DNA from: a virus
Virus genome (UHGV): UHGV-0043514
DNA: 16,909 nt
Direction: 5' to 3' (one strand)
In this document: in pieces, positions 5,417-16,255 of the stretch
Layout of the letters: every line of letters begins with the position of its first letter
Numbering within the stretch: position 1 is the first letter of the stretch
Translations under genes and position numbers: made by a program
Notes under the pieces: generated by a model
The model's database searches: none
The model's input: only the letters and a program-made list of their open reading frames with translations
Told to the model about the DNA's origin: nothing

Positions 5417-5956
5417 ATGAGTAACTGGTGGCAGGAACTATTACGTTTCTTCCTGCGTGGTCTTACGCTACAACAGTTAATTCATATGCTTATTATTTTA
5501 ATTGCCTTGATAATAATCACCCCTGCATCAATTAAAGAGTGGGTAGATATAAGGAACCCAGAAATACTTCCAGATCACTGGATGTATTACGCAATGCTTT
5601 TGTGTATCAGTTATGTTCTGAACAGGGTGATGGAGTTTATATTTCTGGCATCTTCAGACAGATATAAAAAATATCTCAGTAAGAGAGATGAGGCTAAAGT
5701 AATTGTGGAGACTGAGCGCCTGTTCAATTCTCTGAGTATTCAGGAAAAAGAGGTTTTAGCATTTGCTGTTATGGCAAATAACAAAATCGTACTTAAGCAC
5801 GGCGATCCGGTCGCTTTATCTCTTATGAGAAAAGGCCTTCTCCATCGCTCAGGTGTGACTTACAGCGCGTCAGGTAAAGAGAAATTTGTTATACCTGACG
5901 TCTGGTTCCATGAGTGTTATATGCGCTTTGCTGGTAAAGCTGATGAGCTAATTTAG
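5417..5956 (+). CDS. sieB: SieB-like superinfection exclusion membrane protein (179 aa)
   Basis: Two N-terminal hydrophobic segments (LIHMLIILIALIIITPASI; WMYYAMLLCISYVLNRVMEFIFLA) and a soluble C-terminal half; rightward gene convergent with N, as I recall sieB in lambda; GGAGA Shine-Dalgarno 7 nt upstream. Confidence 0.5.
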   Translation: MSNWWQELLRFFLRGLTLQQLIHMLIILIALIIITPASIKEWVDIRNPEILPDHWMYYAMLLCISYVLNRVMEFIFLASSDRYKKYLSKRDEAKVIVETERLFNSLSIQEKEVLAFAVMANNKIVLKHGDPVALSLMRKGLLHRSGVTYSASGKEKFVIPDVWFHECYMRFAGKADELI

Positions 5957-5977: not shown

Positions 5978-6250
5978 TCACCTCGCTGTCAGTTGTTTTG
6001 ATTTCCGGTAGCCTGCCGCGTAAATAGCTACGTTTGGCAGGCAAATACTTCCACTGCATTCATCTGCCTTCTTGCAGCAAAGGCTTCCTAGTGATGCTGC
6101 TTTGTCTGCTCTGACGCAACCAGAGAGCTTTAGCGCAATTTTTCGCGCCAGTGCTTCATTACTGCGTCGCTCGGCAATAAGTTCTGCTCTGCGAGCTTTG
6201 TAGCGGCTTTTTGCCGTACCTTTGGATTCTTTCCAGACAATGGTTACCAT
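5978..6250 (-). CDS. N: N-family transcription antiterminator (90 aa from ATG 6250; the track's ORF starts upstream)
   Basis: Arginine-rich motif GTAKSRYKARRAELIAERR near the N-terminus; C-terminus LPNVAIYAAGYRKSKQLTAR resembles P22 gp24 / phage 21 N as recalled; AAGGAG upstream; first gene after pL and nutL. Confidence 0.8.
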   Translation of the reverse strand: MVTIVWKESKGTAKSRYKARRAELIAERRSNEALARKIALKLSGCVRADKAASLGSLCCKKADECSGSICLPNVAIYAAGYRKSKQLTAR

Positions 6251-6360
6251 GATGGTCTCCTTTAAGTGGCTTTGGCGCATGACGCGTCGAGGTGCTTATC
6301 TTCTCGATCGCTGTCTTGCAGCTGCAATTCGCGCCATCCCCAAAACCACTCAAGTTCTGG

Positions 6361-7486: not shown

Positions 7487-7527
7487 TTGCTCTTTAACAG
7501 TTCTGGCCTTTCACCTCTAACCGGGTG
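7487..7527 (+). promoter_or_regulatory. nutR: boxA (GCTCTTTAACA) plus boxB hairpin with loop containing CUAACCG
   Basis: tGCTCTTTAACAg at 7486-7498; downstream UCACC-UCUAACCG-GGUGA; the same loop motif as nutL. Confidence 0.55.
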
Positions 7528-7596
7528 AGCAAACATCAGCGGCAAATCCATTGGGTGTGCCGCTATAACTCAATATCAATATAGGTAAATTAACAA

Positions 7597-8190: not shown

Positions 8191-9138
8191 ATGAGCAATA
8201 CAGCAAAAATCTACGATTTCAGCGCCGCACACGAGCGCAGGAGCAACAGGATGGAGAACCAGAAAACTGGTTACATTCCGTTGTACCGGAGCATTCTGAA
8301 ACAGTCATGGGCGAAAGATGTTTATCTTCGCACCCTGTGGGAAAACCTTCTCCTGAATGCCGCCAGAAAGCCATACAAAGCGAATTTCAAAGGTCATGAA
8401 TGGCATCTGCAACCCGGTCAACTGGTTGTGACAGCAGCTGATTTAGGTCTTCAGTTATGCGACAGACATGGCAAGCCAGCAAGCCGTGATCAGGTTGAGC
8501 GGATGCTTCAGGTTTTTGTGAAAGAGGGGATGATCTCCATTGATGGAGAGAAGCAAAAAGGTCGTGTGATAACCATCACAAATTACCATGAATATGCTCA
8601 AAAAATGGACAATTTACCCGCACATGAAGCCGCACAAACAACCGCACATGATTCCGCACATGGAGAAGCCAGTAATGGCGCGGCTTTCAGCGCACATGCC
8701 GCACATGAAAGCGCACATGAAAGCGCACATGAAGCCGCACATCATGAACAAGAAGGTATTAACAAGAATATAAATAATACCCCCCTACCCCCCAATGGGG
8801 GAGGCGATGGGCAGGTTAAACCTGAACGTCGCAAGGCAGAACGAATCGACTACGAATCCTTCCTGAACGCCTACAACACCGAAGTAGGTGACAGACTGCC
8901 ACACGCTGTTGCGGTCAACGAGAAACGCAAACGCCGCCTGAAGAAAATCATCCCGCAACTGAAAACGCCAAACGTGGACGGTTTCAGAGCGTATGTCAGG
9001 GCGTTTGTGCATCAGGCCAAGCCGTTTTACTTCGGAGACAACGACACGGGCTGGACAGCTGATTTTGATTACCTGTTGAGGGAAGATTCGTTAACGGGAG
9101 TACGGGAAGGGAAGTTTGCAGACAGGGGGATTGCATGA
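8191..9138 (+). CDS. Replication initiator (lambda O / P22 gp18 functional type, 315 aa) with a repetitive His/Ala/Glu linker encoded by the iteron-like repeats
   Basis: Position immediately upstream of the DnaB-like helicase; N-terminal DNA-binding-like domain; linker [16 protein letters not shown]...[19 protein letters not shown] encoded by reiterated CGCACATGA units. Confidence 0.7.
8617..8800. repeat. Candidate replication origin: about nine CGCACATGA-type repeats at 12-bp periodicity, an AT-rich tract, and a CCCCC-AAT-GGGGG palindrome
   Basis: Repeats at 8619, 8631, 8643, 8655, 8691, 8700, 8712, 8724, 8736; AT-rich 8751-8780 (aacaagaatataaataata); palindrome 8783-8797; all inside the initiator ORF, as in the lambda ori/O arrangement. 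Confidence 0.5.
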
Positions 9139-10511
9139 GACAGGATATCGAAGCGAGCGTTATCGGTGGCCTGCTGATTGGTGGATTAACACCAACTGCC
9201 AGTGACGTTCTGGCAACGCTTGAGCCGGAAGCGTTTTCAATTCCGCTCTACCGGAAAGCCTTCGAGGTTATCCGCAAGCAGGCGCGAAACAGAAATTTAA
9301 TCGACGCGCTGATGGTTGCCGAGGCGTGCGGAGAGGAGCATTTCACGTCAATCCTGATGACCAGCAAAAACTGCCCGAGTGCCGCAAACCTGAAGGGATA
9401 TGCCGGAATGGTCGCGGATAACTTTCACCGCCGTCTGGTGCTGGAAATCATGGATGAAATGCGTGAACCAATTCAGAGCGGAACCATCGACGCATCGAGT
9501 CAGGCGATGGATGAACTTGTAAAGCGTCTTTCAGCCATCAGAAAGCCCCGTGACGAGGTTAAACCGGTACGGTTAGGGGAAATCATCACCGACTACACTG
9601 ACACGCTTGACAGGCGTCTGAGGAACGGAGAAGAGTCAGATACCCTGAAGACCGGAATCGAAGAACTTGACGCTATCACCGGAGGGATGAACGCGGAAGA
9701 CCTGGTGATTATCGCCGCTCGTCCTGGTATGGGTAAAACCGAACTGGCGCTGAAGATTGCCGAAGGCGTTGCAAGCCGCGTTATTCCTGGTTCTGACGTC
9801 CGGCGCGGGGTATTGATTTTCTCAATGGAAATGAGCGCATTGCAGATTGCAGAGCGAAGCATTGCCAACGCCGGGAGGATGTCGGTTAGCGTACTGCGAA
9901 ATCCTGCATCGATGGATGACGAGGGCTGGGAACGTGTTGCTAACGGCATGAGTCAGCTTGCAGATTTGGATGTATGGGTAGTCGATGCCTCGCGGTTATC
10001 GGTCGAAGAAATACGCTCAATCGCAGAACGGCACAAACAGGAAAATCCAAACCTGTCACTCATCATGGCGGATTATCTTGGCCTGATTGAGAAGCCGAAA
10101 GCAGACCGCAACGACCTCGCAATTGCTCACATCTCCGGAAGCCTGAAGGCGATGGCGAAAGACCTGAAAACACCGGTTATCTCCCTGAGTCAGCTTTCGC
10201 GCGATGTTGAGAAGCGACCAAACAAACGCCCGACAAACGCAGATTTGCGTGATTCAGGAAGCATTGAGCAGGACGCAGACTCAATCATCATGCTCTATCG
10301 GGAAGCTGTATATGACGAGAACAGTAGCGCCGCGCCATTTGCTGAAATCATCGTGACGAAAAACCGTTTTGGCTCGCTTGGTACGGTTTACCAGCGGTTC
10401 TGTAACGGACACTTTGTTGCATGTGACCAGGATGAAGCCAGACAGATTTGCACAGCATCAAATGCACCTGCTGCGCGTGGCAGACGATATGCACAAGGGG
10501 CTGACGTATGA
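9135..10511 (+). CDS. DnaB-family replicative helicase (P22 gp12-like, 458 aa)
   Basis: Walker [16 protein letters not shown]; DnaB-type C-terminal RecA-like domain ([42 protein letters not shown]); start overlaps the initiator stop. Confidence 0.9.
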
Positions 10512-10597
10512 CCATCTACATCACTGAGCTAATAACAGGCCTGCTGGTAATCGCAGGTCTTTTTATTTGGGGGAGAGTAAATCGTGGTTGAGTTAAT
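10508..10597 (+). CDS. Small hydrophobic peptide (29 aa), translationally coupled to the helicase gene (ATGA overlap)
   Basis: [27 protein letters not shown]; single predicted transmembrane helix; not in the ORF track (below its size cut-off). Confidence 0.3.
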
Positions 10598-10790
10598 TTT
10601 CTCTGCATTGAGGATTCTCGGTGCTATGTGGATGGTGTCGACGTTCATTGTGGTTGTCGGAAGTTTTGTCCGGTTGGTAGGCGAAGGTAAAGACCTGGTG
10701 GGTGTGCTTTTCGGTAGCATTTTCCTGTGGGTGATTATCGGTGTTATGCCTGTTGTCGTTGCAAAAGTGGCGTGGCGTTTTGTGAGTTGA
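10584..10790 (+). CDS. Small membrane protein (68 aa, two predicted transmembrane helices)
   Basis: GTG start with a GGGGGAGAG Shine-Dalgarno-like stretch upstream; [68 protein letters not shown]. Confidence 0.45.
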   Translation: MVELIFSALRILGAMWMVSTFIVVVGSFVRLVGEGKDLVGVLFGSIFLWVIIGVMPVVVAKVAWRFVS

Positions 10791-10807
10791 ACTGAGGGTA
10801 AGTACCG

Positions 10808-11185
10808 ATGGACGAATCAAGAAAGCAGTTTGAAGAAAGTTGGTTGCGACGTGGAGGCGAATCATCAGACCTTATCCGTTACCCTGAAAATTACCATGAA
10901 ATTGGCAGTGGTGATATTGGTGGTCAATACGTGATGGACGATGTTCAAGGCCACTGGCAAACGTGGCAGGCATCGCGAGCAGCTATTGAACTGGATATCG
11001 ACTGGCCCGAATCGAATGACGACTTTTGGAAAGATGGTGAAGAAGGTGCTTATGCGATGGGGCATGAGGATGGGAAGGACAAAACGGTAATTGCAGTGAT
11101 GAAAGCTATCAGAGCCGCTGGAATTAAAGAGAAGAATTTCGATGAAGCAAATATACATACTTCGCAACGAAGCAATCAGAAATAA
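10808..11185 (+). CDS. Hypothetical acidic phage protein (125 aa)
   Basis: ATG with GAGGGT upstream; Asp/Glu/Trp-rich (DIDWPESNDDFWKDGEEGAYAMGHEDG); overlaps the ninB start by 44 nt. Confidence 0.5.
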   Translation: MDESRKQFEESWLRRGGESSDLIRYPENYHEIGSGDIGGQYVMDDVQGHWQTWQASRAAIELDIDWPESNDDFWKDGEEGAYAMGHEDGKDKTVIAVMKAIRAAGIKEKNFDEANIHTSQRSNQK

Positions 11186-12290: not shown

Positions 12291-12320
12291 TTGACGCGAT
12301 GATTTATCCGGGGCTATATT
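12291..12320 (+). promoter_or_regulatory. Sigma70-like promoter (TTGACG, 17-bp spacer, CTATAT/TATATT) immediately after ninE
   Basis: -35 TTGACG at 12291-12296; -10 CTATAT at 12314-12319; predicted start near 12327. Confidence 0.5.
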
Positions 12321-12381
12321 CCCAGCATGCCAGCAAAATCTGGCGTCGGGATTGGCGTCCCGGATAGAGACCGCGACAGAC

Positions 12382-12404
12382 ACACGCCGCGAGCGTGTTT
12401 TTTT
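12382..12404 (+). terminator. Strong intrinsic terminator (ACACGC-CGCGA-GCGTGT followed by T7)
   Basis: 6-bp GC-rich stem, 5-nt loop, then tttttttatt; about 75 nt downstream of the predicted start of the 12291 promoter. Confidence 0.6.
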
Positions 12405-12565
12405 ATTGTCGAATGCACGCGCACATCTGAATTATGGTGGGCTGTGTGGGGGCGGAGAGATCCGCGCCGGTCGGTTTCCCGGTTACGCCAACCCTGCACA
12501 GTTCACCACCAGACGATTGGCGTCGTCGGTGGTGAGTTATTTAGAAACCACTCGAGGGCGTCATT

Positions 12566-13246
12566 ATGACAACTCAAATCTCTGTTGAAACTCTCTCCCC
12601 GATCACCCATAACCAGATTCCTGTTATTACCACCGAACTTTTGGCGCAGCTTTATGGCACAGAAATTCTGAACATCCAGGTTAACTTCACCAGAAACAAA
12701 GAGCGTTTTGTCGAAGGAAAGCACTTTTTTAAAGCATCTGGTGAGGAATTAAAAAATTTGCGACTTACTTTAAGTAAGTCACAAAACCCCATATCTCCCA
12801 AAGCCCGCTCCCTTATCCTCTGGACAGAACGCGGAGCAGCCCGTCATGCAAAAATGCTCGAAACCGATCAGGCGTGGGATGTGTTCGAAAAACTGGAAGA
12901 CTGCTATTTCAGCGAGTGCGAGAAAAATACTGGCAAACAAGAGAAGAAGCCCAACGGGCTTTCCGCAAAAGAAACAGACATCCTTGTATGGCTGTGGGAT
13001 TATGCCAACCGCTCACAGGCATTGTTCCGTGAGTTGTATCCCGCATTAAAACTGATTCAGTCTGGCTATTCCGGCATATGCCACGACTACGGCTATGAGT
13101 TCTCGTATATCATCGGGAGGGCGAGGGGCGTTTTAATTAATCACACGCGGGATATAGATATTTATGAGCCTGACGGGCCGACGAACCTTCTGGCATGGGA
13201 AAGGCTTAAGAACAAAGAGTTGCCGCCTTCACTGCATCGCTACTGA
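12566..13246 (+). CDS. ORF6N-domain (KilA-N-related) phage regulatory / antirepressor-like protein with an unassigned C-terminal half (226 aa)
   Basis: N-terminal half ([16 protein letters not shown]...[19 protein letters not shown]...[38 protein letters not shown]) fits the ORF6N pattern as I recall it; residues from about 120 to 226 match nothing I recognise; GAGGG Shine-Dalgarno 7 nt upstream. Confidence 0.6.
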
Positions 13247-15910: not shown

Positions 15911-15940
15911 TCCCCTTATTGGGGGTAAGACATGAAGATG
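15911..15940 (+). promoter_or_regulatory. S dual-start regulatory structure (CCCC-TTATT-GGGG hairpin plus tandem ATG AAG ATG starts)
   Basis: tCCCCttattGGGGgtaagacATGaagATG; the known lambda arrangement giving S107 (antiholin) and S105 (holin). Confidence 0.7.
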
Positions 15941-16255
15941 CCAGAAAAACATGACCTGTTAGCCGCCATTCTCGCGGCAAAGGAACAAGGCATCGGGGCA
16001 ATCCTTGCGTTTGCAATGGCGTACCTTCGCGGCAGATATAATGGCGGTGCGTTTACAAAAACAGTAATCGACGCAACGATGTGCGCCATTATCGCCTGGT
16101 TCATTCGTGACCTTCTCGACTTCGCCGGACTAAGTAGCAATCTCGCTTATATAACGAGCGTGTTCATCGGCTATATCGGCACTGACTCGATTGGTTCGCT
16201 TATCAAACGCTTCGCTGCTAAAAAAGCCGGAGTAGAAGATGGTGGAAATCAATAA
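15932..16255 (+). CDS. S: Holin S (class I, lambda S107/S105; 107 aa)
   Basis: [67 protein letters not shown]... matches lambda S as recalled; three transmembrane segments. Confidence 0.93.

Follow-up and report, generated by a model that had tools for sequence, protein, structure and literature searches.

In lambdoid phages, a very short open reading frame (ORF), ninA, follows the last gene of the replication region and precedes the first of the nin genes, and the intrinsic terminator tR2 lies inside it. Li et al. (2016; PMC4824070), who cite Kroger & Hobom (1982) and a lambda ribosome-profiling study for NinA, set lambda tR2, together with the 48 bp that naturally precede it, between two reporters and judged the NinA start beside it 'not weak'. 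Transcripts terminated at tR2 have no stop codon and act as non-stop mRNAs, and the upstream reporter was roughly halved; silencing the start restored expression, while termination efficiency rose by only ~10%. According to the phage L genome paper, in which ninA was added by hand, the nin genes of all lambdoid phages are linked by ATGA motifs. The lambda nin5 deletion takes out ren-ninA-ninI, P22 strains with a ninA-ninH deletion have been built, the nin genes have been described as non-essential in the laboratory, and NinA is dispensable. A related logic, discussed by Li et al. (2016), is that of pyrBI-type attenuators, in which an intrinsic terminator likewise lies within a short translated ORF and the ribosome can in principle disturb hairpin formation; tR2/NinA differs in the small effect of translation on termination (~10%) and in its readthrough, which depends on N antitermination and not on ribosome position. 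Here we describe this arrangement in the UHGV virus genome UHGV-0043514, a stretch of 16,909 nucleotides (the window), where two small ORFs, ORF1 and ORF2, occupy the 283 nucleotides at which, in a lambdoid prophage, the replication module gives way to the nin region. Very probably, they represent a NinA/tR2 relay block followed by an optional accessory membrane protein.

Judged from its sequence, ORF1 is the long-known reading frame of lambdoid NinA, which was described in 1982. Its ATG (10508-10510) overlaps the TGA of the preceding DnaB-like helicase gene (10509-10511) as ATGA, as a sequence-only reading of this DNA had noted, and it ends at UGA 10589-10591; the peptide has 27 residues, not the 29 given in that reading. 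It matches phrog_5907 (residues 1-26 on profile positions 1-26 of 27, E 1.3e-18), is identical to UniProt K7P6R4, the 'NinA protein' of phage HK630, and finds 398 phage records by tblastn. The gene is annotated in P22, Sf6, HK620, HK630, and Lahn2. In P22, 'ninA' (81 nucleotides) contains 'terminator L2; similar to phage lambda'; Sf6 gene 45 is 'similar to phage 21 NinA' and is accompanied by 'bsq6; boundary sequence' and 'tR2'; and in Lahn2, ninA with tR2 is followed by 'ORF69', the counterpart of ORF2. In E. coli genomes ORF1 is left unannotated by PGAP, so that the expectation of a gene missed in annotation holds for those genomes and not for the phages named. The block ATGACCATCTACAT(C/T)ACTGAGCTAATAACAGGCCTGCTGGTAATCGCAGG(C/T)CTTTTTATTTGGGGGAGAG is the same in the window as in lambdoid NinA/tR2, and both the map position and the ATGA overlap with the upstream stop are shared. 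In lambda, the same codons stand between the ren stop and ninB, whereas the window has a P22-gp12-type DnaB helicase in place of ren and ORF2 in place of ninB, and its peptide ends in RVNRG instead of RGKS. The identities of the elements (NinA, tR2, and the ORF2 family) are practically certain, and the finding as a whole is ordinary, NinA/tR2 being already known and ORF2 already catalogued.

The terminator inside ORF1 had escaped the sequence-only reading. A terminator scan found AGGCCTGC-TGGTAATC-GCAGGTCT at 10537-10560, followed by TTTTATTT, with five G-C pairs in the stem. The isolated hairpin folds at -13.0 kcal/mol (z -3.34; lambda version, -15.7 kcal/mol), and it is this isolated hairpin that is significant, since the fold of the whole 101-nucleotide region is not (z -0.40). 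Over the hairpin and T-tract, the window differs from lambda by a single mismatch, a C-to-T change at 10557 in the 3' stem arm that yields a G.U pair and occurs in two of 106 unique copies. tR2 is annotated at the homologous site in P22, Sf6, HK620, and Lahn2, and its position in the window, with the helicase gene 5' and NinB and other nin genes 3', is the map position of lambda tR2. The hairpin and T-tract coincide with codons 10-21 of ORF1 (GGC CTG CTG GTA ATC GCA GGT CTT TTT ATT TGG). NUN codons specify hydrophobic residues, and ORF1 reads as a hydrophobic helix because a GC stem and a U-tract encode such residues in this frame.

A second anchoring, on the 5' half of ninA, leaves the hairpin unconstrained and gives a view of its variation. 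The same 5' half (ATGACC...AATAACA, 30 nucleotides) is joined to three other arrangements besides the lambda-type tR2. In IME10, Stx2_5044, and four contigs, an alternative hairpin and T-tract (GGGGCTAT...GTAGCCC, then T6) occupies the tR2 site (loci L131, L132, L136, L138, L143, and L145), and locus L141 has a variant of this hairpin in which a U-A pair of the IME10 type is replaced, in a compensatory change, by C-G. At L141, the ninA frame runs in frame into the ATG of the downstream gene. Every hairpin version folds with z between -3.3 and -4.0; because one ungapped alignment cannot hold both hairpin types, pair counts from it understate the IME10 and L141 pairing, and separate folds were used. 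Among lambda-type stem substitutions, pairing is kept as G.U in three of four variants, and two more variant positions lie in the loop. The peptide follows these changes: the IME10-type swap alters seven of 11 core residues, to GAIYTVALFYW, and lowers the grand average of hydropathy (GRAVY) of the whole peptide from 1.14 in the window to 0.10; a loop change gives L13Q in four loci; and natural W21-stop, frameshift, and insertion variants occur. Since the swap and the natural variants alter the core residues, the hydrophobic core is constrained as RNA and not as protein.

In the HK022-type loci, the ninA 5' half and the tR2 hairpin are separated by an ORF for a 203-residue HNH-type endonuclease, inserted at the exact border of the two; it has the look of a homing endonuclease that entered the boundary block. 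The insertion is seen in L008 (HK022; 457-1205, with the ORF at 539-1150), L017, L093, L125, and L201; it creates a 34-residue NinA-like ORF, and the endonuclease TAA lies 2 nucleotides before the hairpin. The 'long NinA' of these phages was considered as independent evidence for a hydrophobic peptide and rejected, as it is made by the insertion of the HNH gene.

These observations bear on how such ORFs are read in general. A short hydrophobic ORF that overlaps the end of a gene may owe its 'transmembrane helix' to a terminator, since the codons of a GC stem and a U-tract read as G, A, L, V, I, and F; such ORFs should therefore be screened for terminators before a micro-protein is called. In NinA, the hallmarks of translation are kept over hundreds of mosaic phages while the core is dictated by RNA structure, which would make it a clean natural example of an ORF serving as a translational relay across a terminator.

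The surroundings of the block are highly mosaic. With the hairpin core as the anchor, IMG/VR contigs and annotated phages together yielded 116 loci (113 unique sequences). Between positions -33 and +40 relative to this anchor, the majority-base fraction stays at 0.91-1.0; directly outside it falls to ~0.5-0.65, which delimits a block of ~70 nucleotides. Its flanks include at least eight gene ends upstream (among them Ren and two DnaB types) and eight unrelated protein families downstream: NinB, the ORF2 family, the Sf6 gp46 type, a 92-residue homologue of ORF 10808-11185, and four more. The block is a classic lambdoid module junction, from replication genes to the nin region, and by itself is present in ~1,850 of 5,426 complete E. 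coli genomes.

Against this changing background, ninA is probably translated, as a relay ORF that carries a terminator and not as a membrane effector. A GGAG or GAGG motif stands 5-10 nucleotides before the ninA ATG in seven of eight unrelated upstream gene ends, where it falls in codons for different amino acids; arbitrary ATGs of the same loci give a background of 5%. At the other end, each of the eight downstream families has the stop of the ninA frame overlapping or directly adjoining the next start, by ATGA or GTGA in five, by 8 nucleotides in two, and as TAA-ATG in one. In one ATGA family, the frame runs for eight extra codons through unrelated sequence to reach ATGA, and in IME10 the stop and the next start overlap by 14 nucleotides. 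Within codons 2-10, seven of 10 distinct variants are synonymous, compared with 21 of the 81 possible ones (p 0.002), and there is no variation at second positions. Both results refer to the hairpin-anchored set, which was used because the diversity comparison anchored on the 5' half is partly biased, its search pattern having held codon positions one and two fixed. An equal p for the synonymous bias comes from an antisense ORF that shares third positions; this ORF was rejected, as it has no conserved start and contains stops in other phages. The case for translational coupling, as the sequence-only reading had it, is thus strengthened by the overlaps, the conserved layout of Shine-Dalgarno motif and stop-start junction, and the lambda reporter work (PMC4824070).

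The sequences show what the elements are, how they are conserved, and that ORF2 is under coding constraint; the course of termination, readthrough, coupling, and membrane insertion given here is inferred. Without N, pR transcripts would end in the U-tract at ~10566-10568, inside ORF1 and ~16 nucleotides before ORF2, so that neither protein would be completed, and ribosomes begun on ninA would run off the stop-less 3' end. With N acting at the nutR-like site (Table 1), polymerase would read through tR2. Ribosomes leaving the helicase gene at AUGA would then re-initiate on ninA, cross the hairpin, and stop at the UGA, whose overlap with the ORF2 GUG would pass them on, ORF2 also having its own GGAG. 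NinA would mainly be a translated relay in a 'chain of interlinked genes', and ORF2, whose expression as an optional, delayed-early accessory cassette is expected to depend on N antitermination, would insert into the membrane.

ORF2 is a real gene and one that is already catalogued. It aligns with phrog_1165 from end to end (1-68 on 1-68 of 68, E 7.1e-35), so that neither of the two ORFs is a chance feature. In comparison to phrog_1165/ORF69, the length, the start 43 nucleotides after the hairpin anchor, and the 8-nucleotide ninA overlap, which the sequence-only reading had missed, are the same, and there is no substantive difference. The window protein is an allele of the HK022/mEpX1-type subfamily; it shares 82-96% identity with that subfamily, 53-59% with the HK620 type, and 42% with the Salmonella type. 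In these 42%-identical Salmonella homologues, the start position is kept, and the overlap is retained as ATGGTTAA. The GGAG motif credited to ORF2 as its own ribosome-binding site is indeed there, and the same motif serves whatever gene stands after the block. Across 32 unique coding sequences, the median ratio of nonsynonymous to synonymous substitution rates (dN/dS) amounts to 0.34 in the ORF2 frame, whereas the two alternative frames give 0.73 and 1.05. These values, together with a diversity that decreases from third to first to second positions, bear out conservation at the amino-acid level. Coding periodicity is already seen in codons 2-14, in support of the GTG/ATG start. Codons 61-68 (10764-10790) are near-invariant at all three positions (pi 0.07, 0.015, and 0.06) while the rest varies; this may mark another junction of recombination, or the initiation region of the next gene may impose a constraint.

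ORF2 is predicted with high confidence to be a membrane protein, a small helical hairpin of the inner membrane. Hydropathy gives two hydrophobic helices, and AlphaFold2 models a helical hairpin of residues 2-33 and 38-67 (predicted local distance difference test score 92.8), in agreement with the two-helix, 68-residue protein of the sequence-only reading. Nineteen alignment columns are invariant across the subfamilies, and the conserved features are W16, T20-F21, the loop L31-V32-x-x-G-K36-D37, G53, P56, and a C-terminal A-K-x-A-W-x-F. RefSeq labels the family 'hypothetical protein' or 'membrane protein' (WP_032199564-type), and the exact sequence occurs on 161 contigs as 'hypothetical protein'. 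The family is small: two word-indexed searches gave 183 and 32 clusters, all unnamed, and a profile search gave only 26 representatives among 1.84 billion proteins. Relatives of 63-66 residues occur in nin-like regions of other temperate phages, beside NinX, Lar, phiTE_015, and DUF1367 genes. ORF2 is optional, being present in about one quarter of NinA-bearing phage records (107 vs 398), and a homologue of the next window gene stands directly behind tR2 in other phages. The ORF1-ORF2 pair (at least 80% of the 283 nucleotides) is found in 531 of 5,426 complete E. coli genomes, i.e., ~10%, which makes ORF2 a reasonable, not urgent, target for functional work. In the proteins P0121, P0123, P0125, and P0128 of Salmonella prophages, NinA residues 1-21 are fused in frame to an ORF2-family protein, giving a length of 93-94 residues; P0125 occurs on 47 contigs. 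The fusions were presumably made by indels in the T-tract or G5 run of the tR2 block.

Several points weigh against reading ninA as a translated relay. The window's own upstream context, of the P22 gp12 type, is the one of eight with no GGAG/GAGG core at a spacing of 5-10, having a weak AAGGGG only, so that ninA initiation here may rest wholly on re-initiation. The stop-start junctions are not all independent, since the NinB and MNLDEQ types share GGGAAGTCATGA and the ORF2 and Sf6 gp46 types share GTGGCTGA. The synonymous test comprises just 10 distinct variants from recombining, non-independent sequences. ORF2 is kept in the HK022-type phages even though their block is split by the HNH gene, and it therefore needs no ninA translation. 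Finally, the Salmonella fusions could mean that ORF1 sometimes adds a real third helix.

An alternative that goes beyond the relay is that the overlap of ORF and terminator is itself a selected device, in which N-independent pR transcripts become non-stop messages and the replication message decays through its link to transfer-messenger RNA (tmRNA); ribosomes close behind polymerase could, in addition, modulate termination. The halving of an upstream reporter by an active NinA start beside tR2, and its restoration by silencing (PMC4824070), point in this direction, as do the 30-nucleotide distance from ATG to hairpin, invariant over all hairpin types, and a frame that stays open across three different hairpins. 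Yet the effect of NinA translation on termination efficiency was only ~10% in the same experiments, no phage phenotype is known, the arrangement is missing in HK022-type phages, and a by-product of tight gene packing fits the data equally well. We regard such a device as unlikely. The same judgement applies to a combined proposal, by which tR2 in a coupled ORF is a selected device (tmRNA-linked decay limiting replication proteins without N, relay with N) and, separately, ORF2 and the other slot proteins with hydrophobic starts form an unstudied class of delayed-early membrane effectors.

Rather improbable is the view that ORF2 is a lysis-timing or holin-like protein (class II or pinholin-like) or a superinfection-exclusion protein. 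Its size and predicted two-helix topology would suit such a role, and three of the eight alternative genes at the slot also start with a hydrophobic helix. However, its sole family match, phrog_1165, has no assigned function, and no holin, exclusion, or defence family was matched. ORF2 lies outside the lysis cassette, 5 kilobases from it, and the cassette has its own lambda S-type holin. Located behind tR2 in the pR operon, ORF2 should not be expressed in a lysogen, which sets it apart from prophage exclusion genes; delayed-early lytic expression is expected instead of prophage-expressed exclusion. The toxin, exclusion, or modulator roles proposed for either ORF by the sequence-only reading likewise found no match: there is no Pfam, NCBIfam, or PDB sequence match for ORF1 or ORF2; no PADLOC family matches ORF1, ORF2, or the next ORF at E up to 1; Rfam gives nothing at E up to 1 over 10400-10900, so no toxin-antitoxin antisense RNA family; and a Foldseek search of BFVD and PDB with the ORF2 model returned generic helical hairpins only, none at E <= 0.001. 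Confidence in any specific function of ORF2 is low.

It is improbable to a slightly greater degree that ORF1 is an untranslated chance frame over a terminator, in a block conserved only as recombination linker and terminator. The block is conserved at the DNA level whatever genes flank it, PGAP makes no call, the window Shine-Dalgarno motif is weak, and an open frame of 27 codons from a given ATG is not rare ((61/64)^27, ~0.27). Chance would leave without explanation the Shine-Dalgarno motifs before seven of eight unrelated starts, the stops set on the next start in eight families (in one by way of eight extra codons), the invariant second positions of codons 2-10, and the reporter result that the lambda start site affects expression of the upstream mRNA (PMC4824070).

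Least tenable, and very unlikely, is the proposal of the sequence-only reading that ORF1 acts as a single-helix micro-protein in the membrane, be it a toxin, an exclusion factor, or a modulator, and that its overlap with the terminator is incidental: conserved translation signals, a mostly synonymously varying N-terminal decapeptide, a hydrophobic composition, and natural fusions to ORF2 with a possible third helix speak for it, but the core is exactly the hairpin and U-tract, hairpin swaps and natural L13Q, W21-stop, and frameshift variants alter or truncate it, HK022-type phages split the frame, the uninterrupted hydrophobic run (L8-W21) has just 14 residues, the lambda nin5 deletion takes out ren-ninA-ninI, nin genes have been described as non-essential in the laboratory, and PADLOC and Pfam give no match.

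Table 1. Features of the ORF1-ORF2 region and of related loci in the window.
Feature	Position	Strand	Remarks
DnaB-like replicative helicase gene	9135-10511	+	P22 gp12 type, 458 residues; DnaB_C 6e-78, DnaB N-terminal 4.5e-13; phrog_19
Weak Shine-Dalgarno-like AAGGGG	10495-10500	+	Within the helicase coding sequence, 7 nucleotides before the ORF1 ATG
ORF1 / ninA	10508-10591	+	ATG start, 27 residues; from the helicase stop over tR2 to the ORF2 start
Lambdoid module-boundary block	10508-10577	+	ATGACC...GGGGGAGAG; 'bsq6' of the Sf6 annotation; delimited by conservation across loci
Intrinsic terminator tR2	10537-10568	+	8-bp stem 10537-10544 / 10553-10560, 8-nucleotide loop, T-tract TTTTTATTT at 10560-10568
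Shine-Dalgarno GGAG for ORF2	10572-10575	+	8 nucleotides before the GTG, within the GGGGGAGAG end of the block
Stop/start overlap GTGGTTGA	10584-10591	+	ORF2 GTG and ORF1 TGA, 8 nucleotides
ORF2	10584-10790	+	GTG start, 68 residues, first gene after tR2; phrog_1165 family (Lahn2 'ORF69')
N-like antitermination protein gene	5978-6280	-	phrog_271, anti-termination protein N-like, 1.4e-34
nutR-like site	7488-7529	+	cro-cII interval; boxA-like TGCTCTTTAACA; boxB-like hairpin TCACC-TCTAACCG-GGTGA
c4-a1b1 targets	12314-12366	+	Rfam
isrK	12327-12403	+	Rfam
C4 antisense RNA	12430-12513	+	Rfam
Lambda S-type holin gene	15932-16255		phrog_126; lysis cassette, 5 kilobases from ORF2

By gene content from profile matches, the window comes from a mosaic lambdoid prophage and represents its early region. 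It starts with RecT and Gam-like genes, cIII-like and sieB-like genes, an N-like gene on the minus strand, a cI-type repressor gene, cro, and cII; it continues with an O-like gene (8191-9138), the DnaB-like helicase gene, and ORF1/ORF2; and it ends with a 125-residue ORF, NinB, Dam, two Ant-like anti-repressors, RusA, Q, and the lambda S-type holin. The nearest phage records (Gally, Kapi1, JEP4, HK97, CUS-3, and HK140) span just 45-70% of it. The nutR-like site is putatively of the phage-21 type. The sieB-related superinfection-exclusion gene (phrog_1301; 5417-5956, plus strand) lies between the cIII-like and N-like genes. The 125-residue ORF behind ORF2 (10808-11185, plus strand) belongs to phrog_343, a family with no assigned function. 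Its 92-residue homologues (MNDSYRQF...) stand directly behind tR2 in other phages with a GTGA/ATGA overlap, and the conserved part of the ORF is its C-terminal half (WQASRAAIELDIDWPESNDD...AAGIKEKN).

A scan of 596 Gb of genome contigs with a 17-mer of the hairpin core, a poorly chosen query, returned 120 matches, mostly by chance. The majority of the 20 true matches are lambda DNA contaminating unrelated assemblies. Exact lambda ren-tR2-ninB is present in loci L158, L189, L193, L196, L199, L206, L213, L221, L227, and others, from assemblies of Pseudomonas, Oceanobacillus, Bradyrhizobium, Psychrobacter, Pseudoxanthomonas, Shewanella, and Nocardioides; short length or a coverage of ~1x marks several of the contigs. 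The occurrence of ren-tR2-ninB in these unrelated bacteria is almost certainly lambda contamination.

Further along the nin region, Rfam identifies a P1/P7-type immunity-I RNA module at 12314-12513 (plus strand; components in Table 1), just 5' of a gene for an anti-repressor (12566-13246). Promoter-like (12291-12320) and terminator-like (12382-12398) sites are also present, and the module looks like an antisense-RNA-controlled ant cassette within the nin region.

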